Positions 1 to 53,161 of a stretch of 64,000 nucleotides of DNA are shown here, piece after piece. Positions within the stretch are counted from its first letter, which is position 1, and each line of letters begins with the position of its first letter. A program made the translations under genes and the position numbers. Below the pieces are notes generated by a model. That model saw only the letters and a program-made list of their open reading frames with translations. It had not been told where the DNA came from and searched no databases. The stretch is from an uncultured bacterium (lineage in GTDB: Bacteria > Verrucomicrobiota > Kiritimatiellia > RFP12 > UBA3636): assembly GCA_902761575.1 (NCBI GenBank), contig CACWKU010000001.1:22435-86434 (forward strand). Reading direction: 5' to 3'.

Positions 1-2975
1 TAGGAGACGGCGTAGGACGTCGCGTTCGCCCCCTCGTCGTCGGTGCCCATCACGATCCCGGAGAGGGAGATCGTCGCCGTCGTGCCGTTCACCTCGACGG
101 CCGCGGATCCGATCGACGGATCGACGACCGTCGCCCCGCCCGCGCCGAGCTCGCGGACCTGGATGGCGTTGATGCAGGCGTTCCCGGAATACTCGATCGT
201 GAATTCTTCCGAGGCGCCGCTTGCCGTGAAGACGCCGACGAGCGAACTTCCGTATTCCCAGCCCGTTCCGCCGAACTTGACGGTCGTCGTGCCGTCCGGC
301 GCGGTGGCGGACTGCGTCGTATAAGTCTGGTTGAACGCAATGATCTGGACCAGGTACCGCTTTCCGCTCTCAAGGTTGTTCAACTGGATCTTCCGGCCTT
401 TGGGGTTCGCCCACCAGCAGTGTCCCAGCATATTCTTATAGTCGACATCGTCGATGCCGGACGGAGGAGTCGGGGTGGCGGATTGCGCCCCCGTCGTGGC
501 CTCCCATACGACGCAGTCCGCGTTGTTGATGAGGCCACTACTAGCAATGAACGCGACACCGTTGACCGTGTAGTTCCCAGCCGCGTAGGCATACTTAAGC
601 GTGCCGTCGGTTCGTATCGCGGCGCTCGTCGCGCCCAGCGCCTCGCCGGTCCAGCCCTCCTCGGCGGAACCGCCGCCACCGCCGCCCGACGTGCTGATGG
701 CGAACGAGGCGGTCTTGGACGCCGTCTTGCCCTTGTCGGTCGTGATCGTGACTTCGCAGGTGTAGGAACCGTCGGCGAGATCGGCGATCTGGAACGAGGC
801 CGAGGCGGCGGTCTGGTTCGCGAGCACCGCCACCGCGGCCCCGCCGTTCAGCGCGTAGGAGACCGCGTAGGACGTCGCGGCCGCGCCCTCGTCGTCCGTG
901 CCGAGCACGATGTCGGAGAGCGAGATCGTCGCGTTCGAGCTGACGACGCTGGCTGCCGCCGACCCGATCGACGGCGCGACGACCGGCGGCGGCGGCGTGC
1001 CGATCCGGAAGGAGACGGTCTTTTCCGCCGAGGTCTTGTTCTTGTCGGTCGTGATCGAGACCGCGCACGTATACTCGCCGTCGGCGAGGTTCGCGATGTC
1101 GAACGAAGCCGTCGCGGCGGCCTGGCCCGTGAGCGCCTGCACCGCGGCCGCGTCGCCCAGGCGATAGGAGACGGCGTAGGACGTCGCGTTCGTCCCCTCG
1201 TCGTCGGTGCCCATCACGACGCCGGCGAGCGAGATCGTCGCGGTCGAGCCGTTCGTCGAGACGGAGACGGAGCCGATCTTCGGCAGGACGACGACCGGCA
1301 CGCCGCTCTCGCCGAGGTCGCGGACCTGGATGCCGTTGATGCCGTAGTTGCCGTCGGACGTGATGGTGAACGTCTTGGTGGTCTCGGTGGCCGTGAAGGT
1401 TCCCGTCAGCGTGCCGCCGCAGGACCAGCCGTCGCCATAGACCTTGATGAAGTTCGGATCCCAGTACGACTCCTTGATCCAGACATGAGCCTTGCTGTCG
1501 CCGTTGTAGTTGCGGTAGCCGAAGATCTGGACGAGATAGCTGCGTCCGACCGTGAGGTTCTTGAGCGTCACCGCCTTGTCGCCCTGGTTCGCCCACCAGC
1601 AGCGGTCCAGGAGTTCATGGTAGGCACCGGAGACGCTGCTCGGGGCCGACGCGCCCGAGGTCTGGCTGTACGGCCAGGCGATATCGCCCGAGATGTTCGC
1701 GTTGTTGTTCCCGGCGGCCGCGAACGCAACGCCGTTGACCGTGCACGCCGCGGGCGCATACGCATACTCGAGCGTGCCGTCCGTGCGGATGGCGCTGTCG
1801 TCGGTCGGCAGCGGGCTCGCGTACCACGGCTCGGTCATCGTGAAGTCGAGCAGCGTCACGAGCTCCTTGTCGTCGGCCGTCGTGACGGTCACCTTGCAGG
1901 TATGGTCGCCGAGGGCGACGTTCGGGATCGCGAACGAAGCCCGGGTGCCCGTCTGGCCGGAAAGCGCGCGCGTCTTCGCCCCGCCGTCGAGCTCGTAGTC
2001 GATTGCGTAGGACGTGACGGCGTTCGCGTTCGCGTCCGTTCCGAGGTTGACGCCGAAGACCGTGATCGTCGCCGAGCCCGCGCCGTCCGCGTTCGGGGCG
2101 GCCTTGGCGTAGCCGACGGAAGGATCCGCCACGTGCGCCTGGCCGGCGGGAACCGAGAGATACTTGTGCATCGCGTTGGTCAGCGCAGGCTTCCAGAAAT
2201 CCGAATAGGTGAAGAATTCCGGATGGAGGCAGAGTCCCACGGCGTCGTAGCCGCCGTGGCCGCCCTCGCGGTAGCAGACCTTGTCGGGCATCGAATTCTG
2301 CTGGAGGTACTGGCTGCGGAGGTCCACCCAGAACACGCGCTTGTTGTCGACGAACTGGAGGATGTAGTCGTTGACTGCCTCGCTCATGGCCGTCACTTCG
2401 GCCGCTTCGAAGTACCTGCTGTCGAAGCTGTAGGGGAGGATCGGCATCAGGAGGATCTTCGCGTCCGGATGCTTCGTCGCCATCTCGCAGAGCATGAGCC
2501 GGATCGACTCGGCGACATCCTCGGCGCGATCGGCGTGCTCGTTGTGGTCGATGCACTTCTGGTGGCCGTTGTTGATGCCGACCATCAGCGTGAAGTACTT
2601 CGTGGTATAGCCGTCGAGCGCGCCGTTCCGGAGGCGCCACAGGAGGTTCTGGACGCGGTCGCTGCCGATGCCCATGTTGAACGCCGCGGCGTAGTTGAGG
2701 GGATCCCCGTCGAGGGCCAGGCTGGGATTGTTCCAGAAGTCGGTGATGGAGTCGCCAAACAGGACCACGTCGAAGTCCTTGCCCTGGCTGCCGCTGATGT
2801 CGGCGCTGAAGTGGTTCTTGTGGTAGTCGTCCGTGCGCTCCTTCGGCGTGCACGGCTCCGAGCTGGGGTCGGATCCCGGCACCTGGGCGCCGATCACGAT
2901 CGGATCGGCGGACGCGACAGTCCAGGCCATCGCAAGGATCGCCGCCGACAGGAAGTGGAGGAGCTTGAGTTTCAT
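1..2975 (-). CDS. Secreted multidomain SGNH/GDSL-type esterase, partial (3' end lies beyond the window start). Order: signal peptide, SGNH domain, Ig-like repeat, 'QVR' beta-sandwich module, 2 Ig-like repeats, Gly linker, second 'QVR' module, partial Ig-like repeat.
   Basis: The minus-strand frame is open from the ATG (2975-2973) to position 1. It is not in the supplied track because it has no stop in the window. Hand translation gives MKLKLLHFLSAAILAMAWTVASA (signal peptide), VVLFGDSITDFW and GINNG (SGNH blocks), ~95-aa repeats (..ATISLSGIVMGTDDEG..SYAVSY..), and modules ending INGIQVRDLGE and INAIQVRELGAGG. It is a paralog of 10964..12616 and 5249..10795. Confidence 0.85.
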   Translation of the reverse strand, partial: MKLKLLHFLSAAILAMAWTVASADPIVIGAQVPGSDPSSEPCTPKERTDDYHKNHFSADISGSQGKDFDVVLFGDSITDFWNNPSLALDGDPLNYAAAFNMGIGSDRVQNLLWRLRNGALDGYTTKYFTLMVGINNGHQKCIDHNEHADRAEDVAESIRLMLCEMATKHPDAKILLMPILPYSFDSRYFEAAEVTAMSEAVNDYILQFVDNKRVFWVDLRSQYLQQNSMPDKVCYREGGHGGYDAVGLCLHPEFFTYSDFWKPALTNAMHKYLSVPAGQAHVADPSVGYAKAAPNADGAGSATITVFGVNLGTDANANAVTSYAIDYELDGGAKTRALSGQTGTRASFAIPNVALGDHTCKVTVTTADDKELVTLLDFTMTEPWYASPLPTDDSAIRTDGTLEYAYAPAACTVNGVAFAAAGNNNANISGDIAWPYSQTSGASAPSSVSGAYHELLDRCWWANQGDKAVTLKNLTVGRSYLVQIFGYRNYNGDSKAHVWIKESYWDPNFIKVYGDGWSCGGTLTGTFTATETTKTFTITSDGNYGINGIQVRDLGESGVPVVVLPKIGSVSVSTNGSTATISLAGVVMGTDDEGTNATSYAVSYRLGDAAAVQALTGQAAATASFDIANLADGEYTCAVSITTDKNKTSAEKTVSFRIGTPPPPVVAPSIGSAAASVVSSNATISLSDIVLGTDDEGAAATSYAVSYALNGGAAVAVLANQTAASASFQIADLADGSYTCEVTITTDKGKTASKTASFAISTSGGGGGGSAEEGWTGEALGATSAAIRTDGTLKYAYAAGNYTVNGVAFIASSGLINNADCVVWEATTGAQSATPTPPSGIDDVDYKNMLGHCWWANPKGRKIQLNNLESGKRYLVQIIAFNQTYTTQSATAPDGTTTVKFGGTGWEYGSSLVGVFTASGASEEFTIEYSGNACINAIQVRELGAGGATVVDPSIGSAAVEVNGTTATISLSGIVMGTDDEGANATSYAVS

Positions 2976-3066
2976 GGTGAACCTCGTGTTTGGATGAGCT
3001 GTTGTTTTCCTTGCGTAGTGCCGGTCCGGGCTCCGAGATGGCGGAGGTGCCGTTCGACAAGGCGGA

Positions 3067-3122
3067 ATTCTAGGCGTTGCCCCGTTTCGAAGATAGGGAC
3101 ACGGAACGCGGAAACAAGTAAA
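3067..3122 (-). promoter_or_regulatory. Tripartite upstream cassette copy 1 (putative promoter of 1..2975)
   Basis: Sense strand: TTTACT (3122-3117), N18, CCCTAT (3098-3093), N20, TAGAAT (3072-3067). The ATG is 92 nt downstream. Confidence 0.55.
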
Positions 3123-3203
3123 TTTCATTCATTCGCCCGAATCCAACCCGCGGCGCGAAGCGAACGGGTTGCCTCGCGTTCGGCCCGGTCTCCGCGTTCC
3201 CTA

Positions 3204-5243
3204 TCAAACGCGTGCGAGGTCCTTCTCGCGCAGGAGGCGCCAGGCGGCGTCGCGGACGTCCGTGACGTCGTCGCGCAGCCTGCCGCAGCGGCACGGGCGG
3301 AGGCGCACGAGGTGCGTCGCGTGGCCGGGGACGGAGGCCTCGTAGACGCCCATGAAGACGCCCTCGTCCTCCTGCCGCCACACGTCGCGCACGAGCCACT
3401 TGCAGAGCAGCCCGGCCTTCTTGAGGTCGAAGGGCACCATCCGCTCGAAGCCGGACTTGTTGTAGAGGCCGGCGGCGATGGAGCCGTCGGCGAGCGGGCG
3501 CGCCCAGACCTCCCAGCCGTCGCCCTCGGCGATGCAGCCCGCGGCCTTGCCGAGCTCGTCCTGGTCGATCTCGATCACCTCGTCGTTCGTGAGGAGCGAG
3601 CGCGTGAACGGGGAGAGCTTCGTAAGATCGCAACCGATCATGAGCGGCGCCGCGAGGAGCGCCCACATCGAGACGTGCGTGTACTGCTCGTTCGGCGCGA
3701 GGCGCGACTCCTTGCCGTCGTTCCAGCAGACCGCGCCGACGCAGAGCATGTCCGGGTCGTTCCACGCGCCGGGGCCGGCGTAGAGGAAGAGGCGCTTCTG
3801 CTTCTCGATGGCGGCGGAGACCGAGGACCAGGTGTCGAAGACGTCGCCCGTCGTGCGCCAGCTCTGCCCGCCGACGCATCGCCCCCACGCGCTCACGTTC
3901 TCCATGCCGTACTGGCAGAGCGAGAGGACGATGTCCCGCTTCTGGTGGCGCAGCGCGGCGCCCATCACGAGGTAGGGGTACATCGCGCGGAGCACGTCGG
4001 AGCCGAACGCGACGTCGTCGTAGAAGCACCAGTCGTGCTTGAGGTAGTCGAAGCCCCACTCGGCGAACGTCTTCGCGTCGAGCTCCTCGTGCTGCCAGCT
4101 CCCGGCGGCGCGGCCGCAGGTGAACGGACCGGGGCTCGAGTAGATGCCGGCCTTGAGGCCCTTCGCGTGGATGTGGTCCGCGAGCGCCTTCATGTCGGGG
4201 AAGCGCCGGTTCGCGGCGATGCGGCCGTCGGCGTCGCGCAGGGGCCCGTCGAGGTCGGGGTCCTCCTTCGCGCGCTCGGGGATGTTCTGCCAGAAGTCGT
4301 CGACGTTCACGTAGGCGTAGCCGTGGTCCGCGAGGCCCGTCGCGACGAGCGCGTCCGCGGCGGTGCGGACCTTCTCGTCCGAGACGCTTCCGGCGAACGC
4401 GTTCCAGCTGCTCCAGCCCATCGCGGGCGTGAGGCAGATCGTCTCGCCGACCCGGATCGTGAACGGCTTCTCGTCGCTGCCGAGGCGGTTCGTCGCGCGG
4501 ATCGCGAGCGCGTAGTCGCCGGGCTCGTCGATGCGGCCGGAGAGGATCCGCGTGGCGGGGTCGTAGGAGAGGCCCGCGAGCTTCGGACTGTCGAGCCCGA
4601 GGCCGATCACCTCGACGCGGAGCGGCGCGGCGCCGGTCGCGGGCACGCGGAAGAGGATGGGGCGGCCGGGCCGCACGCCGTAGACGCACGGGCCGTTCAC
4701 GCGCGGCTCGGGGCGCTCCGGCGGCGTGAGGATCCCGAGCTGGCGCGACGTGCGCCGGACGTCGTTCGGGAGCACCTTGCCGTCGGCGTAGAGCAGCTTC
4801 GCCCCGCCCCAGACGGCGCCGACGCCCTTCCCCGCCCCGCCGTCCGCCGGCTCGGCGACGAGCGTGAACGTCTGGGCGCCGCTCACGTCCGCGCGCGCCT
4901 TGAGGTCGGCCGTGTCGCCCGCCGCCACGACTCCCGACCAGACTTCGCGGCCGTCGGCGAGGACCTTCAGGGCGACCGTGCCCGGCGCGCCGGCGGCGTC
5001 GATGCCGCAGGACGCCTCGAACGCGGCCGCGTCGCCGCCGACCGGGATCTCCACGGCGAACGGCACGGGCGTGCGCAGCCCGAAGAAGTGCTTCTTCGCG
5101 GGGGTCGAGAAGCGCTTCTCGATCGCCGCGCAGGCGACCTCGCAGACGCCCTCGCCGCGCACGACCCTCGTGACGTCGAACATCTCGGCGGGGACGTAGT
5201 GGACGGCGGCGGGCGCCGTTGTGTGTTTCGTGGAACGTTTCAT
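3204..5243 (-). CDS. GH27-family alpha-galactosidase with an N-terminal NPCBM-like beta-sandwich
   Basis: Track ORF 3204..6602 trimmed to the internal ATG at 5243 (MKRSTKHTT..), 5 nt after the stop of the upstream gene. The rest of the track ORF is R/G-rich nonsense in an alternate frame of 5249..10795. GH27-like motifs: TPAMGWSSWNAF, YVNVDDFWQ, FDYLKHDWCF. No obvious signal peptide. Confidence 0.9.
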   Translation of the reverse strand: MKRSTKHTTAPAAVHYVPAEMFDVTRVVRGEGVCEVACAAIEKRFSTPAKKHFFGLRTPVPFAVEIPVGGDAAAFEASCGIDAAGAPGTVALKVLADGREVWSGVVAAGDTADLKARADVSGAQTFTLVAEPADGGAGKGVGAVWGGAKLLYADGKVLPNDVRRTSRQLGILTPPERPEPRVNGPCVYGVRPGRPILFRVPATGAAPLRVEVIGLGLDSPKLAGLSYDPATRILSGRIDEPGDYALAIRATNRLGSDEKPFTIRVGETICLTPAMGWSSWNAFAGSVSDEKVRTAADALVATGLADHGYAYVNVDDFWQNIPERAKEDPDLDGPLRDADGRIAANRRFPDMKALADHIHAKGLKAGIYSSPGPFTCGRAAGSWQHEELDAKTFAEWGFDYLKHDWCFYDDVAFGSDVLRAMYPYLVMGAALRHQKRDIVLSLCQYGMENVSAWGRCVGGQSWRTTGDVFDTWSSVSAAIEKQKRLFLYAGPGAWNDPDMLCVGAVCWNDGKESRLAPNEQYTHVSMWALLAAPLMIGCDLTKLSPFTRSLLTNDEVIEIDQDELGKAAGCIAEGDGWEVWARPLADGSIAAGLYNKSGFERMVPFDLKKAGLLCKWLVRDVWRQEDEGVFMGVYEASVPGHATHLVRLRPCRCGRLRDDVTDVRDAAWRLLREKDLARV

Positions 5244-33681: not shown

Positions 33682-33990
33682 CTAGTCCGCGAGCCATTCA
33701 TGGGCCGGGACGACGCGGATGGCTCGGCCGTCCTCGCGGGCGAAGTCGCGCTGCCTCAGCGTGACGATCGTCCCTTCGCGCAGGCCGAACTGCCGCAGGG
33801 CGCCGAGAATCCCGGCCAGTTCGCGCTCGCGGTTCTCGGACACAAGCTCGTAGCAGACCTGCTCCGCGGAGAACGCGCCGGAGGCGTCGGCGAAGACGAA
33901 GTCGCACTCGGAGGCGTCGTCCGCCCAGTAGAAGCGCCGCGCGCTCCGGCGGCGGATCCGCGCCCAGGCGCAACGGAGACGACCATTATT
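33682..33990 (-). pseudogene. Remnant (C-terminal ~100 codons) of a DUF4143-type AAA+ ATPase gene
   Basis: Frame open from the TAA at 33993-33991 to the TAG at 33684-33682, with no Met. Hand translation: ..RRFYWADDASECDFVFADASG..QVCYELVSENRERELAGILGALRQFGLREGTIVTLRQRDFAREDGRAIRVVPAHEWLAD*. This matches the usual C-terminal style of AAA_14/DUF4143 proteins (YWR..E(V/C)DFV .. I.V(I/V)P...WL). It is preceded by an AT-rich patch at 33985-34040. Track ORF 33698..33973 is a different, nonsense frame. Confidence 0.55.
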
Positions 33991-34096
33991 TTACCACGAT
34001 TGCAATATTTTTTTTCTATTGTTGAAATATCTGCCGCGCGTCCAGTTGCTTTCCGAATCAAGGGCGAATCGGACGCGAAGGGCGCGAGGGCGCGTC

Positions 34097-46566: not shown

Positions 46567-47484
46567 TCAGACGACGAACGCCTTCTCCCAGCGGCGCGCG
46601 GTGTGGTCGCGGAAGAAGACGCCGTAGGACGCGCCGCCGTACCACTCGACGACCGCCGAGCGGATCGCGTTGCCGCGGCGGTTCTCGAGCGAGGCGACGT
46701 CGAACTGCGTGACCGCGGAGCCGTCGATCCCGGAGATCTGGCGCAGGCAGTCCTTGCCGCCCCACTGGAAGTCTCCGACGTGGCAGTGGCCGTAGAAGTG
46801 CGCGACGACGTTCTCCGGCAGCGGCAGCAGCGTCCCCATCAGGTCCGAGGCGCGGTTGCCGCCCGGGAAGGCGTAGTGGCTCATCGTGAAGACGGGCTTG
46901 CCGAGCGCGGCGATCGCCGCTCGCGCCCGCTCCGCGGCTCCGGGGTCGGGGTAGTCGATCCGGTTCTCGCCGTCGGTCGCGCCGCCGTGGACGCAGAACC
47001 ACGAGCCGTCCGGCGCGGCGTGGTCGGAGAAGATCGCGAGCGCCAGGTCGCCGAAGTCCGCGACGAGCAGCCAGTCGCGGACGGAGGGCGTCGTGTGCCA
47101 CTGCGTCTCCCGCAGGACGCGCTCCCGCATCGGGATCGTGACGCGCCCGCTTCCGCGGCCGCCGCCCCACCGGTGGTAGTCGAACTCGTGGTTGCCCATC
47201 GCGTACCAGACCGGCGCGTCGACCCGCGCGAGGGCCTCGACCTGCATGTCGGCCATCTCGCGCAGGTGCGCCGGATCGGTCCCCTCGGTCGTGTCGCCGA
47301 GGTAGCACACGGCGTCCACGGGAAGGCGCAGCGAGAGGAAGTCCTCCACGCCCGCGTGCATGCAGCGGCGGGCGTTCGCCGGATCGCGCTGCTGCAGGTC
47401 GGAGATGACCCAGAGGCGCCGGCGCGCGGGACGGAGCAGGCCCGCGCGGAAGTCCGCGGGCGGCGTGGCGGGGTGCGCGCTCAT
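46567..47484 (-). CDS. Calcineurin-like metallophosphoesterase (305 aa)
   Basis: C-terminal part of track ORF 46567..47955, trimmed to the ATG at 47484, which overlaps the upstream stop as ATGA. Motifs: ISDLQ, YLGDTTEG, MGNHEF, GHCHVGD. Confidence 0.8.
   Translation of the reverse strand: MSAHPATPPADFRAGLLRPARRRLWVISDLQQRDPANARRCMHAGVEDFLSLRLPVDAVCYLGDTTEGTDPAHLREMADMQVEALARVDAPVWYAMGNHEFDYHRWGGGRGSGRVTIPMRERVLRETQWHTTPSVRDWLLVADFGDLALAIFSDHAAPDGSWFCVHGGATDGENRIDYPDPGAAERARAAIAALGKPVFTMSHYAFPGGNRASDLMGTLLPLPENVVAHFYGHCHVGDFQWGGKDCLRQISGIDGSAVTQFDVASLENRRGNAIRSAVVEWYGGASYGVFFRDHTARRWEKAFVV
47465..47476. repeat. Half-copy of the palindrome (GTGGCGGGGTGC) at the 5' end of the metallophosphoesterase CDS
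   Basis: The sense strand reads ATG AGC GCG CAC CCC GCC ACG (MSAHPAT), echoing the GAHPAT peptide of the full intragenic copy. Confidence 0.6.
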
Positions 47485-48212
47485 TTCGACTTCCTCCGGT
47501 AGAGCGCGGCCGGACGGTGCCCCGCGCCGCCGCGCACGCCGCCCGCCGGCTCGACGAACGGTCGGATCTTGCGGCGGAAGTTCGCGGGGTCGTCGGCCGA
47601 GAGCCCGAACGCCAGGAAGACCTCGCGCAGCTCGGCGAGCGTGAAGGTCCGTGGCACGAACGCGAAGGCCAGGTCGCGCGCGGCGTCCGGCCCGCGCAGC
47701 CGCGCGAGCGCGCCGGCGAGGATCTCGTCGTGGTCGAAGGCGAGCCGGCGCCCCGGCTCCGCGAGCTCGCGCCATTCGGCGGCCGCGGCGTCGTCGCCGC
47801 CGCGCACGCCCTCGGCGCCCGCCGTGACGATGCACAGATACGGGCAGGAGAGGATCCACCCGCGCGGGTCGCGCCCGGGCTTGCTCCGCGGCGCGAGCGG
47901 AACGAGCGCGCTCGCCTCGAGGCCCGTCTCCTCGCGCAGCTCGCGCCGCGCGCACTCCTCCAGCGACTCGCCGGGCTGGAGGAACCCGCCCGGCAGCGCC
48001 CAGCGCCCCTTGAAGGGATGCCCGCCGCGCCTCACGAGCAGGATCGCGGCGCGGCGGCGCTCCGGCGCGCGCCAGTTGCCCGTCGGCTCGCAGCGCAGCG
48101 TGAGCGCGACGATGTCCGCCGCGACCGACGGCCGCGGGTACTTCTCGAGACTGTAGTGGGCGAGGAAGCTCGCCTCGTCGTCCAACGCGGATGGCTTGTC
48201 GTTCTTCTTCAT
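47481..48212 (-). CDS. Nudix hydrolase fused to a C-terminal winged-helix-like domain (NrtR-like ADP-ribose-responsive regulator/ADPR pyrophosphatase candidate, 243 aa)
   Basis: Track ORF. A perfect Nudix box is present (GGFLQPGESLEECARRELREETGL), followed by a ~90-aa C-terminal extension. Lies directly downstream of the pncA-like gene. The NrtR assignment is inferred from architecture and context. Confidence 0.8.
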   Translation of the reverse strand: MKKNDKPSALDDEASFLAHYSLEKYPRPSVAADIVALTLRCEPTGNWRAPERRRAAILLVRRGGHPFKGRWALPGGFLQPGESLEECARRELREETGLEASALVPLAPRSKPGRDPRGWILSCPYLCIVTAGAEGVRGGDDAAAAEWRELAEPGRRLAFDHDEILAGALARLRGPDAARDLAFAFVPRTFTLAELREVFLAFGLSADDPANFRRKIRPFVEPAGGVRGGAGHRPAALYRRKSK

Positions 48213-48228: not shown

Positions 48229-48756
48229 CTAGACGATGTCGCACTGGATCGAGCCGAGGACCGCCAGCGCGTGGACCTTCAGCTCCGGCGTCACGTCCGC
48301 CGTGGCGTCCGCGTGGACGACGATCGTCGCGTCCGGGAACCGCGCGCGCAGGATCGCCGCGTTGGAGAGGACGCAGATCGACGTGCATACGCCGCAGAGG
48401 TGCAGCTCCGCCGGCTCGTCGCCGATCCGCGCCGCGAGCGCGTCCGCGAGCGCGAAGCTGCCGAACGTGGGCTTGTCCACGACGATCGCGCCCGGCGCCT
48501 CCGCGAAGGACCGCAGCGCCGGCGCGATCTGCCAGCCGTCCGTCCCCTCGAGGCAGTGCGGGACCGGGAGCTTGCGCCCCTCGAGCGTGGAGGTGTAGTT
48601 TTCGTGGTGCGTGTCGCGCGTGAACGCGACGGCGTCCCACCCGCCCTGCGCGAGCAGCGCGCGGACGGGCTCCGCCGACGCCGCGCATTCGGCGTTCCCG
48701 AGGCTTCCCGTGAGGAAGTCGTTCTGCATGTCGATGACGACGAGGATCTTTTTCAT
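48229..48756 (-). CDS. pncA: Nicotinamidase/isochorismatase-family cysteine hydrolase (175 aa)
   Basis: Track ORF 48229..48822 trimmed to the ATG at 48756 (MKKILVVIDMQNDF..). D/K/C triad context: VIDMQNDF, VDKPTFGSF, LHLCGVCTSICVL. The metal-site style TRDTHHENY..PHC..GTDG resembles Gram-positive-type PncA as I recall it. Confidence 0.7.
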   Translation of the reverse strand: MKKILVVIDMQNDFLTGSLGNAECAASAEPVRALLAQGGWDAVAFTRDTHHENYTSTLEGRKLPVPHCLEGTDGWQIAPALRSFAEAPGAIVVDKPTFGSFALADALAARIGDEPAELHLCGVCTSICVLSNAAILRARFPDATIVVHADATADVTPELKVHALAVLGSIQCDIV

Positions 48757-48810
48757 GGGTTGAAGGGGCTGTCCTTTCGTGGTTCGGGGTGGTTTGTGTT
48801 CAACGCGTAC

Positions 48811-48835
48811 TGATACTATCAAAAATGAATTATCA
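48811..48835. promoter_or_regulatory. Inverted repeat TGATA-N15-TATCA spanning the spacer and -10 of the pncA-operon promoter (candidate operator, for example for the Nudix-wHTH protein)
   Basis: Plus strand: TGATActatcaaaaatgaatTATCA. Its position overlaps the predicted RNA polymerase contact region. Confidence 0.35.
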
Positions 48836-48841
48836 GGTCAA
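48813..48841 (-). promoter_or_regulatory. Sigma70-like promoter of the pncA / Nudix-regulator / metallophosphoesterase operon
   Basis: Sense strand: TTGACC (48841-48836), 17 nt, TAGTAT (48818-48813). Confidence 0.55.
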
Positions 48842-48943
48842 GCAAGAAATTGTACCATCCGCTCCGTGCCCTCCCCGTGCCCCTCGCTCGCCCCGCGCCG
48901 GGTCGGCGGTGGTCGTAGCTCGCATCGCTCGGTCCCGAAAACC

Positions 48944-49027
48944 AACAAACTCCCGAGTGTTTATTCAACAAACTCCCGAACGATTCTTCAACAAACTCCC
49001 GGACGAAATTTCAACAAACTCCCGAAC
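48944..49027 (+). repeat. Four direct repeats of CAACAAACTCCCGR (iteron/operator-like), period 22-23 bp, ending 3 nt before the -35 of the ATPase promoter
   Basis: Repeat starts at 48944, 48966, 48989 and 49012. The 14-nt core is identical except for R. The spacers are AT-rich and not conserved. Confidence 0.8.
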
Positions 49028-49030
49028 AAC

Positions 49031-49059
49031 TTGACATTTCCTTAGATTTCTCATAGAAT
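49031..49059 (+). promoter_or_regulatory. Near-consensus sigma70 promoter of the DUF4143 ATPase gene; the -10 ends 8 nt before the ATG (leaderless-type)
   Basis: TTGACA (49031-49036), 17 nt, TAGAAT (49054-49059), ATG at 49068. Confidence 0.6.
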
Positions 49060-49067
49060 TCGCCACC

Positions 49068-50348
49068 ATGAAACGGTACGCGAAGAGAGTGGCGGATAGT
49101 TTGCTCGCCCGAAAGCTCCAAGGGCTAGGCGCCGTTCTCGTCCAAGGGGCCAAATGGTGCGGCAAGACAACGACCTGCGAACAGGTCGCCAAGAGCGTTC
49201 TGTACATGGGCGACCCGAAGAAGCGCAAGGAGAATCTGGAGATGGCGTCGATCGACGTCACATCGCTTCTGGAGGGTGCGAAGCCAAGGCTCATCGACGA
49301 ATGGCAGGTCGCACCCGTGTTTTGGGACGCGATCCGCCACGCGGTGGACCACGCCGACGGTCCGGGGCAGTTCATCCTGACCGGCAGCGTGGTTCCCCCG
49401 AAGACCGAGGAGAAGACCCATAGCGGGACGGGGCGGATCGCCCGTCTCACCATGCGCCCGATGACGCTCTGGGAAAGCGGTGAGTCGAGCGGAACGATCT
49501 CCCTCGCCGAACTGTTTTCGGGAACGGCCCCGGATAGCGCCCGCGCCATGGGGCGCGAACTGGAGGAGATCGCGTTCCTCGCCTGCCGGGGCGGATGGCC
49601 CCAGGCGGTCCTTCGGAAGGGCGACGTCGCCCTCGACCTCGCCTTCGACTACGTGGACTCGGTCGCGGACGAGGACATCTCGCGCGTGGACGATGTGAGG
49701 CGCGACCCCGCGCGCGCCCGACGCCTTCTGCGCTCCTACGCGCGGCTCCAGGGCTCTCAGGCGAACCTCAAGGCCATCAAGCTTGACATGGCGGGCGGCG
49801 GGATCGACGCCCCGGACGAGGACACCGTCGCCTCCTACCGCGGCGCCCTCGAAAAGCTCTTCGTCGTGGAAGACGTGCCGGCCTGGTGTCCGAACCTTCG
49901 GTGCCGGACCCCTATCCGCACGAGCGGCACGCGCTGCTTCGTCGACCCGTCCATCGCTGCGGCGTCCCTCGGTCTCGGCCCGGGCGGCCTGATGTCCGAC
50001 CTGACGACGTTCGGCTTTTTCTTCGAAACGCTGGCCGTCCGCGACCTTCGCGTCTACGCAGAAGCCCTGTCCGGGAGCGTCGCCCACTACCGTGACGCCT
50101 CCGGGCTCGAATGCGACGCCGTCATCCATCTCCGCAATGGCGCCTACGGTCTCGTCGAGGTCAAGCTCGGCGGCGACCGACTCGTTGCCGAAGGCGTGGA
50201 AACCCTCCTGGCCTTCTCAGGCAAGATCGACACCGACGCAATGAAGGCGCCGGCGTTCCGTATGGTCCTTACGGCCGTCGGCGACTATGCCTACCGTCGT
50301 CCGGCCGATGGCGTCTACGTCTGTCCCCTCTCCGCTCTCTGTCCCTGA
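49068..50348 (+). CDS. AAA+ ATPase of the AAA_14/DUF4143 type (426 aa)
   Basis: Track ORF. Walker A GAKWCGKTT. The C-terminal ..HYRDASGLECDAVIHLRNGAYGLVEVKLGG.. is typical of DUF4143 proteins. Preceded by a low-GC region with a near-consensus promoter and four direct repeats. Confidence 0.85.
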   Translation: MKRYAKRVADSLLARKLQGLGAVLVQGAKWCGKTTTCEQVAKSVLYMGDPKKRKENLEMASIDVTSLLEGAKPRLIDEWQVAPVFWDAIRHAVDHADGPGQFILTGSVVPPKTEEKTHSGTGRIARLTMRPMTLWESGESSGTISLAELFSGTAPDSARAMGRELEEIAFLACRGGWPQAVLRKGDVALDLAFDYVDSVADEDISRVDDVRRDPARARRLLRSYARLQGSQANLKAIKLDMAGGGIDAPDEDTVASYRGALEKLFVVEDVPAWCPNLRCRTPIRTSGTRCFVDPSIAAASLGLGPGGLMSDLTTFGFFFETLAVRDLRVYAEALSGSVAHYRDASGLECDAVIHLRNGAYGLVEVKLGGDRLVAEGVETLLAFSGKIDTDAMKAPAFRMVLTAVGDYAYRRPADGVYVCPLSALCP

Positions 50349-50409: not shown

Positions 50410-53025
50410 CTAGTTCTTCGCGGGCGTGCCGGCGCCGGCGCCGGCCTTGAACTCCATCCTGCTCAGGCGCTGGAGCTGAAGGACGGTGAAGCCGATCAGC
50501 ATGGAGCCGAGCACCCAGGCCATCGCCGTGGCGGGACCGAAGCGCAGGTAGCCGAACGCCTCCCAGAAGATGTGCAGCCCGACGACCTCCGTCGCGCCGT
50601 ACGGCGTGTAGGGGCCGCCGCCCGTCATCGCGAGCACGAACTCGCCGCCGCTCTTCATCGCGCCGATCGCGGCGCCGACGAAGTTGATCAGGATCAGCGA
50701 CCGGATGCCCGGCAGCGCCACGTGGCGGATCTTGCCGAAGAGGCCCGAGCCCTCGAGCTCGGCCGCCTCGTAGAGGTCGTCCGGGACGGTCTTGAGGGCC
50801 GCGAGGTACACGAGGCAGCCCGGCCCCATGCCGGCCCAGATCGTCGGCAGGAGGCACAGCAGGAGCGCCGCCTTCGGCTCGGAGAGCCAGGCCTTCGCGA
50901 GGTCCGGATAGGAGGTGCCGAACACGTAGTTCACGGCGTGGACGCAGCCGTTGATCATCTGGTTGAGGGCGCCGTAGGGACCGTAGAAGCCCTTCCAGAG
51001 GAAGATCACGACAACGCCCGAGAGCACGGCGGGGAGGTAGTAGATCGTGCGGTAGAGGATCTTGCCGCGCGGCACCTCGGAGAGGAGCAGGGCGAGGACG
51101 ATCGGCGCGACGAACCCGAGCCCGAGGTAGAGCGCGGCGTATTCCGCGGAGACGAGCATCGCGTGCCAGAACTCGCCGCTGAAGAGGACGTTGGCGAAGT
51201 TGTCGAGCCCGACCCACTGCGAGTAGCCGCGGACGTTGTAGTCCTGGAACGCCATCGCCGTGCCGCGCGCGAGCGGCCAGTAGGACCAGACCGCGAGCGA
51301 GAGCAGCGCGGGGAGCAGCAGCAGGTAGGCGGCGCCGCGCCCGGAGTCGTTGCGGCGCGAGCCGCCCGCCGGGTCGCGCGGGACCGCGGCGGCGAAGGTG
51401 CGCATCACGCGGCGGAAGACGAAGAAGAACGCGAGCGCCATGCCGACGACGACGACCGCCGCGACGCGGCGGCGGAAGCGCATCTTCTCCGGCGGCACGC
51501 GCCCGATCATCTTCTCGTCGGCGAGCGCGACGCGCTCGCGCAGGATCGCGCCGATGCGCTCGCGCGCGGCGGGGACGTCGCCGCGGCGGATGGCGTCGCG
51601 CACGGCGCCGTCGTTGCGCGCCTGGTCGATGGCGCGGGACATGTAGGTGTAGACGAGCTGGCAGTTGCGGCCGTAGGGCTCGGGGACGCCGTTCTCGCGC
51701 GCGACGGCGGCGGCCTCGTCCCAGCCCTCGGGGCAGGCGAAGGCCTCCGGGTCGAAGCCCGCCTCGCGCAGCGCGGAGGGCGGGACGAAGCGGCCGAGGC
51801 CGTTCTCGACGTAGGTGCGCGTCCGGATCTTGCGCGCCTCGCGCCCGCCCATGAACCACGCCCACTCCCACGCGAGCTCCGGCACGCGCGGGTCGCGGTC
51901 GCCGCTGCCGGCGTAGACGCCGAGCATGCCGCAGTTGTACTCGCTGCCGCGGCGGCCGGACGGGCCGCGGGGCACCGGGCCGAAGCCGATCAGGTTCGGG
52001 TCGATCTGCTGGAAGGTGTCCTGGTCGAGGTAGGAGAACCACATCGCGGAGCGCTGGCCGGGCGTGAAGGCCTCGCCCGTGTCGACGCACGTCGGGAGCG
52101 TGCCGCAGGCGTTGGTGAAGGGCTCCAGGTAGAGGCGGCAGACGAACGCGTAGGCGTCCGCCGCCTCGGGCGAGTCGAACGCGCAGCGCCAGGCGCCGTC
52201 CGCGTCGCGCTTCACGGCTCGGCCGCCCCACGAGTAGAGGAACGAGAGCGTGCTCCAGCCCGTCTCGCCGGTCGGGAGCGAGAGGCCCCAGGTCTTGTCC
52301 GCCGGGTTCGTGACGCGGCGCGCCCAGTCGAGGAGCTCGTCCGCCGTCTCCGGCACGCGGTCCGGGAGCCCCGCCTCCGAGAAGACGTCGCGCCGGTAGA
52401 AGAGCGCCATCACGAGCTGCTTGTGCGGGACGGCGAAGGTGTGGAAGTGCTCCGCGCACGGCTCGCGGCCCCATTCGCGCAGGTAGGGGCAGTCCTCGCC
52501 CCACGGGCACTCGCGGCGGATGACGTCCCACAGCACGGGCGGGAGGCGGTCGCGCAGCTCCTCCTCGAAGCGCGGGCCGGTCCGGAGCAGGTCGAGATAC
52601 TCCGGGTTGGGGAGCCGGTGCGCCTCGCGCGTCGCCTCCGGCGAGAGGCCGTCCTCCCGCTCGAGCCAGGCGTCGAGCGGCATCAGGAAGCGGTTGCGGA
52701 CGTAGGTGTCGGACTGGCGGAAGTTCACGTACATCGCGTCCGGCGCGACGTCGCCCGCAATCTGCATGAGCGGGGTCGTGTCCATCGCGCGACCGCCGGG
52801 CAGGACGAGCCCGCCGGAGGACTCGAGCCGCGCCTCGGGGTGCAGCGCGCGGAAGGCGTCCGCGACGCGGACGGAGCATTCGCCCTCGACGCCCTGCGGC
52901 TCGCCGCTGGGGACGCCCCACGAGCGCACGACGGGCGGGCCGTCCTCCGCCGCCGCGAACGCGGCGCACGCGAGGAGGACGGCGATCGCCGGCAGGCGAC
53001 GGAAGGGACGGATCGTTGCGTTCAT
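50410..53025 (-). CDS. Fusion of a sugar-type ABC extracellular solute-binding protein and a MalF-like ABC permease in one 871-aa polypeptide
   Basis: Track ORF 50410..53115 trimmed to the ATG at 53025 (MNATIRPFRRLPAIAVLLACAAFAAA signal peptide). The N-terminal ~530 aa are SBP-like. A TM segment follows (RVAAVVVVGMALAFFFVF), then a permease core with an EAA loop (DLYEAAELEGSGLFGKIRHVALPGIR). Confidence 0.85.
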   Translation of the reverse strand: MNATIRPFRRLPAIAVLLACAAFAAAEDGPPVVRSWGVPSGEPQGVEGECSVRVADAFRALHPEARLESSGGLVLPGGRAMDTTPLMQIAGDVAPDAMYVNFRQSDTYVRNRFLMPLDAWLEREDGLSPEATREAHRLPNPEYLDLLRTGPRFEEELRDRLPPVLWDVIRRECPWGEDCPYLREWGREPCAEHFHTFAVPHKQLVMALFYRRDVFSEAGLPDRVPETADELLDWARRVTNPADKTWGLSLPTGETGWSTLSFLYSWGGRAVKRDADGAWRCAFDSPEAADAYAFVCRLYLEPFTNACGTLPTCVDTGEAFTPGQRSAMWFSYLDQDTFQQIDPNLIGFGPVPRGPSGRRGSEYNCGMLGVYAGSGDRDPRVPELAWEWAWFMGGREARKIRTRTYVENGLGRFVPPSALREAGFDPEAFACPEGWDEAAAVARENGVPEPYGRNCQLVYTYMSRAIDQARNDGAVRDAIRRGDVPAARERIGAILRERVALADEKMIGRVPPEKMRFRRRVAAVVVVGMALAFFFVFRRVMRTFAAAVPRDPAGGSRRNDSGRGAAYLLLLPALLSLAVWSYWPLARGTAMAFQDYNVRGYSQWVGLDNFANVLFSGEFWHAMLVSAEYAALYLGLGFVAPIVLALLLSEVPRGKILYRTIYYLPAVLSGVVVIFLWKGFYGPYGALNQMINGCVHAVNYVFGTSYPDLAKAWLSEPKAALLLCLLPTIWAGMGPGCLVYLAALKTVPDDLYEAAELEGSGLFGKIRHVALPGIRSLILINFVGAAIGAMKSGGEFVLAMTGGGPYTPYGATEVVGLHIFWEAFGYLRFGPATAMAWVLGSMLIGFTVLQLQRLSRMEFKAGAGAGTPAKN

Positions 53026-53105
53026 CGAAAGGGGTTCCAAGGGTTGTGTCGCGGTCCCGCGGCCGGCCCGGATCCGATCGCCCCGACCCGCCGAAGACGG
53101 AACCG

Positions 53106-53161
53106 ATGCTATCACCTCGCGCGCGTTGCGGGTAGGGACGGACCGCCCAAAAAGCGGTAAA
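53106..53161 (-). promoter_or_regulatory. Tripartite upstream cassette copy 10 (putative promoter of the SBP-permease fusion gene)
   Basis: TTTACC (53161-53156), N18, CCCTAC (53137-53132), N20, TAGCAT (53111-53106). Confidence 0.55.

Follow-up and report, generated by a model that had tools for sequence, protein, structure and literature searches.

A 23-bp direct-repeat array carried across phyla by an AAA_14/DUF4143 ATPase-nuclease gene family, with a probable role as its cognate operator

In this study, we investigated a 64-kb stretch of DNA from an uncultured bacterium of the Kiritimatiellia (the window, by which we mean the whole of the 64,000 nucleotides analysed), and in particular the intergenic region between the pncA operon and a divergent gene encoding an AAA_14/DUF4143 protein, an ATPase-nuclease that matches the PADLOC candidate PDC-S01. 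Just upstream of this gene lies an array of direct repeats that runs into a promoter close to consensus (Table 1). The core CAACAAACTCCCGR was observed in four exact copies on the plus strand of the window, with a period of exactly 23/23/23 bp; no fifth copy was found in the 64 kb with up to two mismatches tolerated, and four matches were reached by 0 of 100 dinucleotide shuffles. The four repeats reported in the initial annotation are real and exact, with the corrections that the first copy starts at 48943 instead of 48944, that the period is 23 bp throughout instead of 22-23 bp, and that the last 14-mer, ending at 49025, is separated from the -35 hexamer by 5 nt (ACAAC) instead of 3 nt. The -35 hexamer begins at position 20 of unit 4, the spacer of this unit extending into it, and the TTGACA-17-TAGAAT promoter, found with its ATG exactly where it had been described, agrees with the consensus at 11 of 12 positions. 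From the short gap between the -10 element and the start codon, the mRNA of the ATPase gene is predicted to be leaderless or nearly so, and the same layout, with 6-10 nt in this gap, was seen again in homologues from spirochaetes and the Planctomycetes-Verrucomicrobia-Chlamydiae (PVC) group. An Rfam scan of 48600-49300 (E<=1) disclosed zero RNA motifs.

Table 1. Positions of the array, promoter, gene, protein domains and neighbouring features in the window
Feature	Position	Strand	Details
Array of four 23-bp units	48943..49034	+	Unit = 15-nt core CAACAA-ACTC-CCGRA plus variable AT-rich 8-nt spacer
Unit 1 core	48943..48957	+	Half-sites: positions 2-6, AACAA; positions 11-15, CCGAG
Unit 2 core	48966..48980	+	Exact copy, family register
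Unit 3 core	48989..49003	+	G variant at the R position of the initially annotated motif
Unit 4 core, promoter-proximal	49012..49026	+	Ends 4-5 nt before the -35 hexamer
-35 hexamer TTGACA	49031..49036	+	TTGACT in some strains
-10 hexamer TAGAAT	49054..49059	+	17-nt spacer to -35
-10-to-start gap and ATG	49060..49070	+	8 nt, no Shine-Dalgarno sequence; ATG at 49068
AAA_14/DUF4143 gene, 426 aa, PADLOC candidate PDC-S01	49068..50348	+	Pfam, PADLOC, AlphaFold2
P-loop NTPase domain (residues 1-140) and helical lid, together residues 1-210	49068..49697	+	Conservation, fold
Winged-helix domain, residues ~211-300	49698..49967	+	Helices 214-226, 234-242, 251-263, then beta wing
Codon of residue 252	49821..49823	+	In the winged-helix domain
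PD-(D/E)xK nuclease domain, residues ~301-426	49968..50345	+	Invariant residues, model
Codon of residue 344	50097..50099	+	Ala in the window protein
nrtR regulator gene	47481..48212		Nudix + NrtR_WHD; in the pncA operon
Predicted pncA -35, TTGACC	48841..48836	-
Predicted pncA -10, TAGTAT	48818..48813	-
Palindrome, candidate NrtR operator	48810..48836		27 nt, CTGATAcTAT-N7-ATtATCAG
AT-rich intergenic patch	48790..48860		37% GC
Substrate-binding protein-permease fusion gene	50410..53115	-	901 aa, SBP_bac_1 + BPD_transp_1
DUF4143 remnant	33682..33990	-	C-terminal ~100 aa (nuclease end) only
AT-rich stretch next to the remnant	33951..34090		42% GC patch

With reference to the databases, the window protein was assigned by Pfam to AAA_14 (E=4e-13, 49.8 bits against a gathering cut-off of 27) and DUF4143 (E=1e-26, 93.8 bits against 28.1), and by the PADLOC model PDLC04790 (PDC-S01) over residues 1-368 (E=2.5e-57); the NCBIfam search gave zero matches and the sequence search of the PDB zero relatives. 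An AlphaFold2 model obtained from a 125-sequence alignment reached a predicted local distance difference test score (pLDDT) of 91.8 and a predicted template modelling score (pTM) of 0.92, an earlier model from 20 sequences having been unusable (pLDDT 57). Throughout the 125 sequences, the Walker A (G27-x4-G32-K33-T34), Walker B (D77-E78) and sensor (T105-G-S107) motifs are invariant, arginines R123 and R130 are conserved, and the catalytic-type residues E320, D350, E364 and K366, located on the alpha-beta-beta-beta-alpha-beta core of the model, are likewise invariant. The model fold matches SSO1545, PABY2304, NB-ARC/CED-4, MalT (probability 1.0) and Orc1/Cdc6. As modelled, the protein would combine a STAND/ORC-like ATPase, a winged helix and an intact PD-(D/E)xK nuclease; the STAND module (nucleotide-binding domain, helical domain and winged helix) is present, and a C-terminal sensor repeat domain (TPR, WD40, LRR) is absent, as the 426-aa chain ends at the nuclease domain. 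DUF4143 has been classed as PD-(D/E)XK (PMC3424549), and the architecture of PDC-S01 has been described as an ATPase plus PD-(D/E)xK (PMC12988326), the same as that of the window protein with its PDLC04790 match. PDC-S01 is an untested candidate, defined by its embedding in BREX, DISARM or type I restriction-modification loci (bioRxiv 10.1101/2024.01.29.577857), and is reported to rank fourth in frequency among the 'defence' items of prokaryotes and first among the single loci of rumen genomes (PMC12988326, PMC13356809). The window gene, in contrast, lies outside any defence island, between NAD-salvage genes and a transporter; AbiE-type genes were noticed near some of its relatives. The family clade comprises about 891 clusters at 50% identity (E<=1e-30).

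The array was investigated in about 190 homologous loci with 31-88% protein identity, drawn from genomes (80), metagenomes (80) and viral contigs (24), to which plasmid and other loci were added later; an extra search with a 39%-identical relative as query gained almost nothing, disclosing only relatives at least 89% identical to that query. The hosts are widely dispersed, including Kiritimatiellia, Lentisphaerae, Verrucomicrobia, Victivallales, Spirochaetes (Treponema, Sphaerochaetaceae), Clostridia, Negativicutes, Bacilli, Erysipelotrichales, Bacteroidales, Fibrobacter, Chlorobi and Coriobacteriia, and with few exceptions the samples came from gut or rumen. Nearly all of the loci carry 2-11 direct repeats just upstream of the gene and in its orientation. 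When lags of 12-40 nt were compared, the best self-similarity fell at 22-23 nt in 169 of 180 upstream regions against 0 of 503 control windows from the same loci, and neighbouring units are spaced at exactly 23 bp in 372 of 389 pairs (13 at 22 bp, 1 at 24 bp). About 290 motif matches were recorded on the gene strand, 240 of them between -300 and -1. The family consensus unit is CGCCAA-WYNN-CSGAA followed by an AT-rich spacer, and the window unit aligns to it as CAACAA-ACTC-CCGAA.

Though the period is shared, the cores are highly diverse. An 81%-identical relative in another context (locus L002) has four 23-bp-phased repeats, the promoter TTGACA-17-CATAAT and an ATG 7 nt further on, and its core, CRACAAAGTGCCGRA, is unlike that of the window; relatives at 31-55% identity possess quite different cores with the same period, and at 31-40% identity arrays are still present in Chlorobi, Lactobacillales, Coriobacteriia and others. 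Two paralogues in one Bacteroidaceae metagenome-assembled genome (MAG156; L032 and L075) have entirely different cores. Array-bearing members were found in cultured strains or plasmids of Bacteroides ovatus (strain 3725), B. uniformis, Collinsella aerofaciens ATCC 25986, Prosthecochloris aestuarii DSM 271 and Lentilactobacillus hilgardii. Other DUF4143 subfamilies are arrayless, as in the second gene of L013, the divergent gene of L002 and a remnant elsewhere in the window; in L013 the array-bearing gene and the arrayless one stand in tandem (2367-3650 and 3724-4998). The 23-bp array is a cross-phylum signature of this ATPase-nuclease family, found at nearly all of its loci, and among distant relatives it is the module of array, promoter and gene that is conserved, the genomic neighbourhood not being so. 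We found no description of such an array in full-text searches of the literature on DUF4143, COG1373, PDC-S01, AAA_14 or 23-bp repeats with AAA+ proteins, and the papers searched report no cis-element, DNA specificity or regulation of PDC-S01.

Comparison within and between arrays indicates which parts of the unit are kept. Within an array, the mismatch is 13% for core positions but 45% for spacer positions, and core positions 9-10 mismatch in 73% of comparisons between arrays, which is near random, as against 18-24% within an array. In ten contigs of the window species, the cores are invariant in nine, with polymorphisms falling in the spacers and the -35 element, and the tenth carries a 7-nt deletion in unit 1. 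Near-identical loci differ in their number of units, namely 3 against 4 in L207/L208, 6.4 against 4.4 in L058/L059 and 5.8 against 2.9 in L020/L031, and L202 and L193 are a further near-identical pair with an array difference; over short times, then, arrays gain and lose units. Replication slippage is a known source of tandem repeats, and this varying copy number among relatives could recall a neutral origin in the AT-rich spacer. Such an origin is practically excluded by conservation, as period, orientation and promoter register persist at 31-100% protein identity in many phyla and the cores are kept while the spacers drift.

The position of the array relative to the promoter is constant, although the type of promoter changes with the host. 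PVC bacteria and spirochaetes display a sigma70-like, leaderless promoter at the array, Firmicutes a sigma70-like promoter with a long Shine-Dalgarno leader, and Bacteroidales a TAnnTTTG element. Counted on the last unit, the first base of the -35 element falls at position 20-22 in 55 of the 64 distinct sigma70-type loci. The spirochaete -35 (TTGCCA) is part of the last unit, and for the -7 element of Bacteroidetes (TAnnTTTG) three sets of start positions were recorded, 32-33, 54-56 and 76-78, which lie one unit apart. This fixed register points to a role in transcription. The proposal of the initial annotation that phased repeats touching the -35 element form an operator- or iteron-like array is supported, the promoter that the array abuts being a strong one. 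Near-consensus promoters, with a last unit that abuts or overlaps the -35 or -33 region, favour repression, and we regard repression of the gene's own promoter as more likely than activation.

For 145 non-redundant proteins, each of which was paired with the consensus of its own array, the highest mutual information was observed between residue 344 and bases 2-3 and between residue 252 and bases 11-12. Lysine at 344 pairs with G2C3 in 96 of 105 cases and S/A/G344 with nA, and bases 11-12 read CC with aspartate, CG with glutamate and GG with lysine at residue 252. A sister-pair contrast test was dropped, being confounded by divergence, and a test of branch co-occurrence was used instead on a neighbour-joining tree that excluded the candidate regions (3344 tests). 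The pairing of residue 344 with bases 2-3 was the best of all 3344 (z=7.1, p<=5e-5, the permutation floor), 15 of the 22 changes at this residue sharing a branch with a change at these bases. Residues 252 with bases 11-12 (z=4.1, p=2.5e-4), 233 with bases 7-8 (z=3.8, p=2.5e-4) and 281 with bases 2-3 (z=3.7, p=1e-3) are individually suggestive, and residue 255 with base 1 gave z=3.3 and p=1e-3. The rule for residue 344 was also checked on arrays that the motif model had missed, where K344 occurs with [G/T]CC in 10 of 10 distinct arrays and the four cases without K344 show TAC, TAT, CAC or AAT.

In the AlphaFold2 model, residues 233, 250-255 and 281 map to the helix N-termini of the helix-turn-helix and to the wing, the winged-helix domain containing the covarying residues 233, 250, 252, 255 and 281, and residue 344 sits in the beta1-beta2 hairpin of the nuclease domain. 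It is with the helix N-termini and the wing that a winged helix usually reads DNA, and the pairings of lysine with G and of aspartate or glutamate with C are chemically sensible. We infer that each protomer may read one unit with two modules, for which the covariation is good, though indirect, evidence. It has to be weighed whether another factor, such as NrtR or a host transcription factor, binds the array in place of the ATPase, as the divergent operon includes the gene of an NrtR-type regulator at a distance of 0.7 kb and the initial annotation had named this Nudix and winged-helix protein as a potential partner. We find this barely credible, as NrtR is missing from dozens of unrelated neighbourhoods that contain a homologous array, the ATPase gene being the sole one common to all array contexts; moreover, the arrays of the two MAG156 paralogues differ within one genome, the array covaries with residues of the ATPase, and a better match for NrtR is a separate palindrome over the pncA promoter. 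The other suggestion made at the outset, that the ATPase regulates its own gene, agrees with both the cross-phylum conservation and the protein-DNA covariation.

From the array, its period, register, conservation and covariation, we infer binding by the ATPase, its cooperativity and the sign of regulation. The array is probably a cognate operator or assembly array that the downstream ATPase-nuclease binds cooperatively, thereby regulating its own gene. In such a mechanism, each 23-bp unit would offer a bipartite 15-bp core with half-sites at positions 2-6 and 11-15, occupied by one protomer, whose recognition helix (residues ~250-255) would lie on half-site 2 and whose wing (281) and PD-(D/E)xK hairpin (344) would lie on half-site 1. 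Because the units are head-to-tail with a fixed 23-bp spacing and a fixed register, neighbouring protomers could touch and load cooperatively. Loading may be controlled by nucleotide, and it would build a short nucleoprotein filament that ends at the -35 element. The outcome would be autoregulation of a strong near-consensus promoter, repression being likelier than activation, and a core private to each cassette would prevent cross-talk between paralogues in one genome.

Several points weigh against this interpretation. Only the pairing of residue 344 clearly passes correction for multiple tests, and the rule for residue 252 holds in most of the missed arrays with L053 and L147 as exceptions. 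The unit registers were set by a motif model, which may bias the positions that appear conserved. That residues 252 and 344 face one DNA surface about 9 bp apart is an assumption, and the winged helix of STAND proteins is normally no reader of DNA. The last unit starts at about -44, -55 or -66, a constant helical phasing that an activator could equally show, and the intact nuclease domain is unexplained by a purely regulatory role.

Comparatively, the system resembles several known ones in part. In P1 oriR-repA, iterons overlap the rep promoter and private specificities underlie incompatibility; the likeness to the window lies in direct repeats of ~22-23 bp that overlap the promoter of the binder's gene, in autoregulation, which is inferred here, and in private specificities. 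An iteron-type replicon likewise has at least three direct repeats of ~22 bp near the gene, where the window has four at 23 bp. Its initiator is of the Rep_3/RepA WH1-WH2 type, however, whereas the window protein contains AAA_14 and DUF4143 alone, and the family is rare on plasmids and gives no sign of replication. The fold of the protein resembles that of archaeal Orc1/Cdc6 bound to origin recognition box (ORB) elements (PDB 2qby), and covariation implicates the winged helix of the window protein in reading repeats; it differs in its extra PD-(D/E)xK domain and in a sequence identity of ~12%. The window units are unidirectional and abut a promoter, unlike ORB elements, which as a rule are arranged in inverted orientation about an unwinding element.

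These likenesses raise the question of whether the array consists of origin iterons, with the ORC/Cdc6-like ATPase as the initiator of a cryptic or integrated replicon on the model of P1 oriR-repA or archaeal oriC-orc1. In iteron plasmids and many archaeal origins, the repeats lie directly upstream of the binder's own gene, and the direct repeats of ~22-23 bp in AT-rich surroundings upstream of a candidate binder, as well as the fold shared with the DNA-bound complex 2qby, would fit such an origin. We nevertheless judge it very unlikely. Only 8 of 72,556 plasmids carry the family, none of them a small replicon relying on the gene; the cassettes are single in chromosomes, one lying inside a kynurenine operon; no DnaA box was found near the array and no GC-skew switch; and no helicase or loader partner is conserved. 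All units run in the same direction and flank no unwinding element, and their quantised register with the -35 and -7 elements points to transcription.

MalT (PDB 8bob) offers another parallel: driven by its oligomerisation, this STAND-like NTPase binds cooperatively to several direct repeats beside the -35 element, a behaviour that for the window protein is proposed here. The DNA sites of MalT/STAND-type factors and of SARP/AfsR regulators are direct repeats next to the -35. MalT nevertheless possesses a separate LuxR-type helix-turn-helix reader and a sensor domain and activates weak promoters of other genes, whereas the window protein has an apparent reader in the winged helix of its NTPase module, a near-consensus promoter of its own and a nuclease domain. 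ParR-parC and TubR-tubC, which use small ribbon-helix-helix or winged helix-turn-helix binders and a separate NTPase for plasmid segregation, also display phased direct repeats at the promoter of the binder's operon and an autoregulating nucleoprotein filament, but the window system is a single polypeptide in chromosomal cassettes. Avs and NLR NB-ARC proteins differ in their large sensor repeat domains and have no known cognate DNA arrays, and SSO1545 (PDB 2fna) and PABY2304 (PDB 2qen) are 'archaeal ATPase' proteins of structural genomics with no known function. In its apparent way of working, the array comes nearest to the autoregulatory iterons of P1 repA, the centromere-operator arrays of ParR-parC and TubR-tubC and the MalT boxes, and in fold the protein comes nearest to Orc1/Cdc6 and STAND modules. 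The window system nevertheless appears to belong to none of these families, as defining features are lacking, among them the STAND sensor repeat domain and the Rep_3/RepA initiator.

The family also moves. Where near-identical genes stand in different contexts, their common DNA extends only from the array to a point 0-350 bp beyond the stop codon; measured from the start of the ~1.28-kb gene, the shared homology extends from -145 to +1645 in L004/L006, from -136 to +1439 in L020/L031 and from -104 to +1281 in L033/L061, and begins at -113 in L017/L038. Relatives with 57-64% identity are housed in unrelated gut phyla. Judging from where homology ends, the array and promoter are transferred horizontally together with the gene, as a single self-contained cassette. 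The initial annotation had seen in the ATPase an accessory or mobile cargo, and this stands at the level of the family, given the unrelated phyla, the homology break at the array and the codon composition of the window gene, but it does not extend to a recent insertion at this locus, which is fixed in 23 contigs of the species.

Several further observations concern the surroundings of the cassettes. Exact direct repeats of 14-96 bp flank the cassette in about 14 of 170 loci, and longer repeats of host sequence reach 232 bp at 95% identity and 355 bp at 91% identity (L049, at -438..-207 and +185..+414 past the stop; L150, at -717..-363 and +85..+439); flanking direct repeats were also recorded at L020, L080, L039, L013/L090 and L082, and those of L067, L133, L148 and L162 are local repeat families. 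Target-site duplications were considered for these repeats and rejected, because the repeats are not of one length and include several local repeat families and two duplications that have diverged. In L002, a second, truncated copy of the array, the promoter and the first ~100 nt of the ATPase gene (638-838, compared with 2900-3100) stands upstream of a DUF2459 gene and a 341-aa open reading frame, 2.3 kb before the intact cassette, and these passenger genes, bracketed by direct copies of array and promoter, could be under control of the ATPase in trans. A lone two-unit array remnant with the cognate core CCAAACTGCCGA and no gene lies ~800 bp past the stop codon in L046. For many members the sole record is a contig of 1.3-3 kb, comparable in size to the cassette; assemblies could have broken at the cassette flanks, where the context is multi-copy or varies between strains, or the collection could simply consist of contigs with a short median length. 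The plasmids with the family are 23-125 kb in size, plus one 900-kb record, and have other functions. On phages, the family was found in 4 of 50,697 records, all unannotated metagenomic fragments, and in 24 IMG/VR matches; the idea of a phage gene was rejected. The few minus-strand matches 1.6-1.9 kb past the gene start, considered as a second array or inverted end, lie in coding sequence, are unlike the cognate units and are attributed to chance.

It is in this light that we consider the array as the protein-binding end or recombination site of a minimal mobile element, with an ATPase-nuclease of TnsA/TnsC-like or homing type. The identity between relatives in different phyla, the many cassette-sized contigs, the start of homology at or within the array, the unit-number differences of the three pairs given above and the exact flanking repeats would all suit such an element, and the tracking of bases 2-3 by a residue of the nuclease domain means that the nuclease may be positioned on the array. 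Even so, such an element is unlikely, in that no inverted or second array lies 3' of the gene, the flanking repeats have no fixed length and are in several cases local repetitive DNA or 91-95% diverged duplications, the position is stable within the species, and transposition alone does not explain the register of array and promoter. A further reading, possible though doubtful, is that the array is a private DNA 'key' on which the ATPase polymerises, the DNA templating assembly of the nuclease, which would be a new self-addressed single-gene system. It is left open by the covariation of residue 344 with half-site 1, the invariant catalytic residues, the homology break at the arrays, the variation of unit number and the flanking repeats. 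If true, the array could keep a dangerous nuclease parked and silent, with infection or DNA stress as the trigger for its release or activation; in another variant, the array could be the site of nuclease action that drives exchange or spread of the cassette, a new minimal mobile element.

As for the window locus itself, the low GC content stated in the initial annotation holds, the intergenic region having 51.8% GC against 69% across the window, though as two AT-rich patches, one over the pncA promoter and one over the array (43%) and its promoter (38%), kept apart by a spacer of 76% GC. The ATPase gene has a GC content at third codon positions of 0.83, compared with 0.96-0.97 in its neighbours, which fits an old, partly ameliorated acquisition whose array is still AT-rich; no GC-skew switch was found at the locus in the plot of the window. 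The neighbours are pncA, nrtR, a metallophosphoesterase gene and the fusion of a substrate-binding protein with an ATP-binding cassette (ABC) permease. The position of the locus is identical in all 23 contigs read from this species, and the sole positional variation is a four-gene NAD-salvage indel on the pncA side. The indel genes, which encode an ADP-ribosylglycohydrolase, a PnuC-like nicotinamide mononucleotide transporter, an AAA_28 NadR-like kinase and a second ADP-ribosylglycohydrolase, stand between the shared promoter region and pncA in L194-L196, L199, L200 and L202 and fall within the presumed NrtR regulon; the indel explains the divergence of L001 from the window at 48766. The palindrome, which lies between the predicted -35 and -10 elements of pncA and is conserved in L001, is a plausible candidate for the NrtR operator, separate from the ATPase array. 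The fusion gene is convergent with the ATPase gene and kept in all strains of the species, and we found no evidence for the earlier suggestion that the ATPase occupies the slot of missing transporter partners. The truncated DUF4143 gene noted previously does exist, but it belongs to a different subfamily and lacks a 23-bp array; it is probably a decayed older cassette.

In summary, what is new is a hypervariable, 23-bp-phased array, probably a cognate operator and assembly array, attached to an abundant and uncharacterised ATPase-nuclease cassette. For the PDC-S01 family, the array makes it possible for the first time to test a molecular activity, the binding of a defined 15-bp core, and our data supply a candidate recognition code in residues 344 and 252 together with a regulatory logic. 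In nature the family would also supply hundreds of protein-operator pairs, potentially orthogonal and of fixed geometry, on which synthetic circuits might draw. It is important for annotation that a PADLOC call of PDC-S01 may mark an autoregulated DNA-binding ATPase-nuclease cassette and not a proven defence gene.

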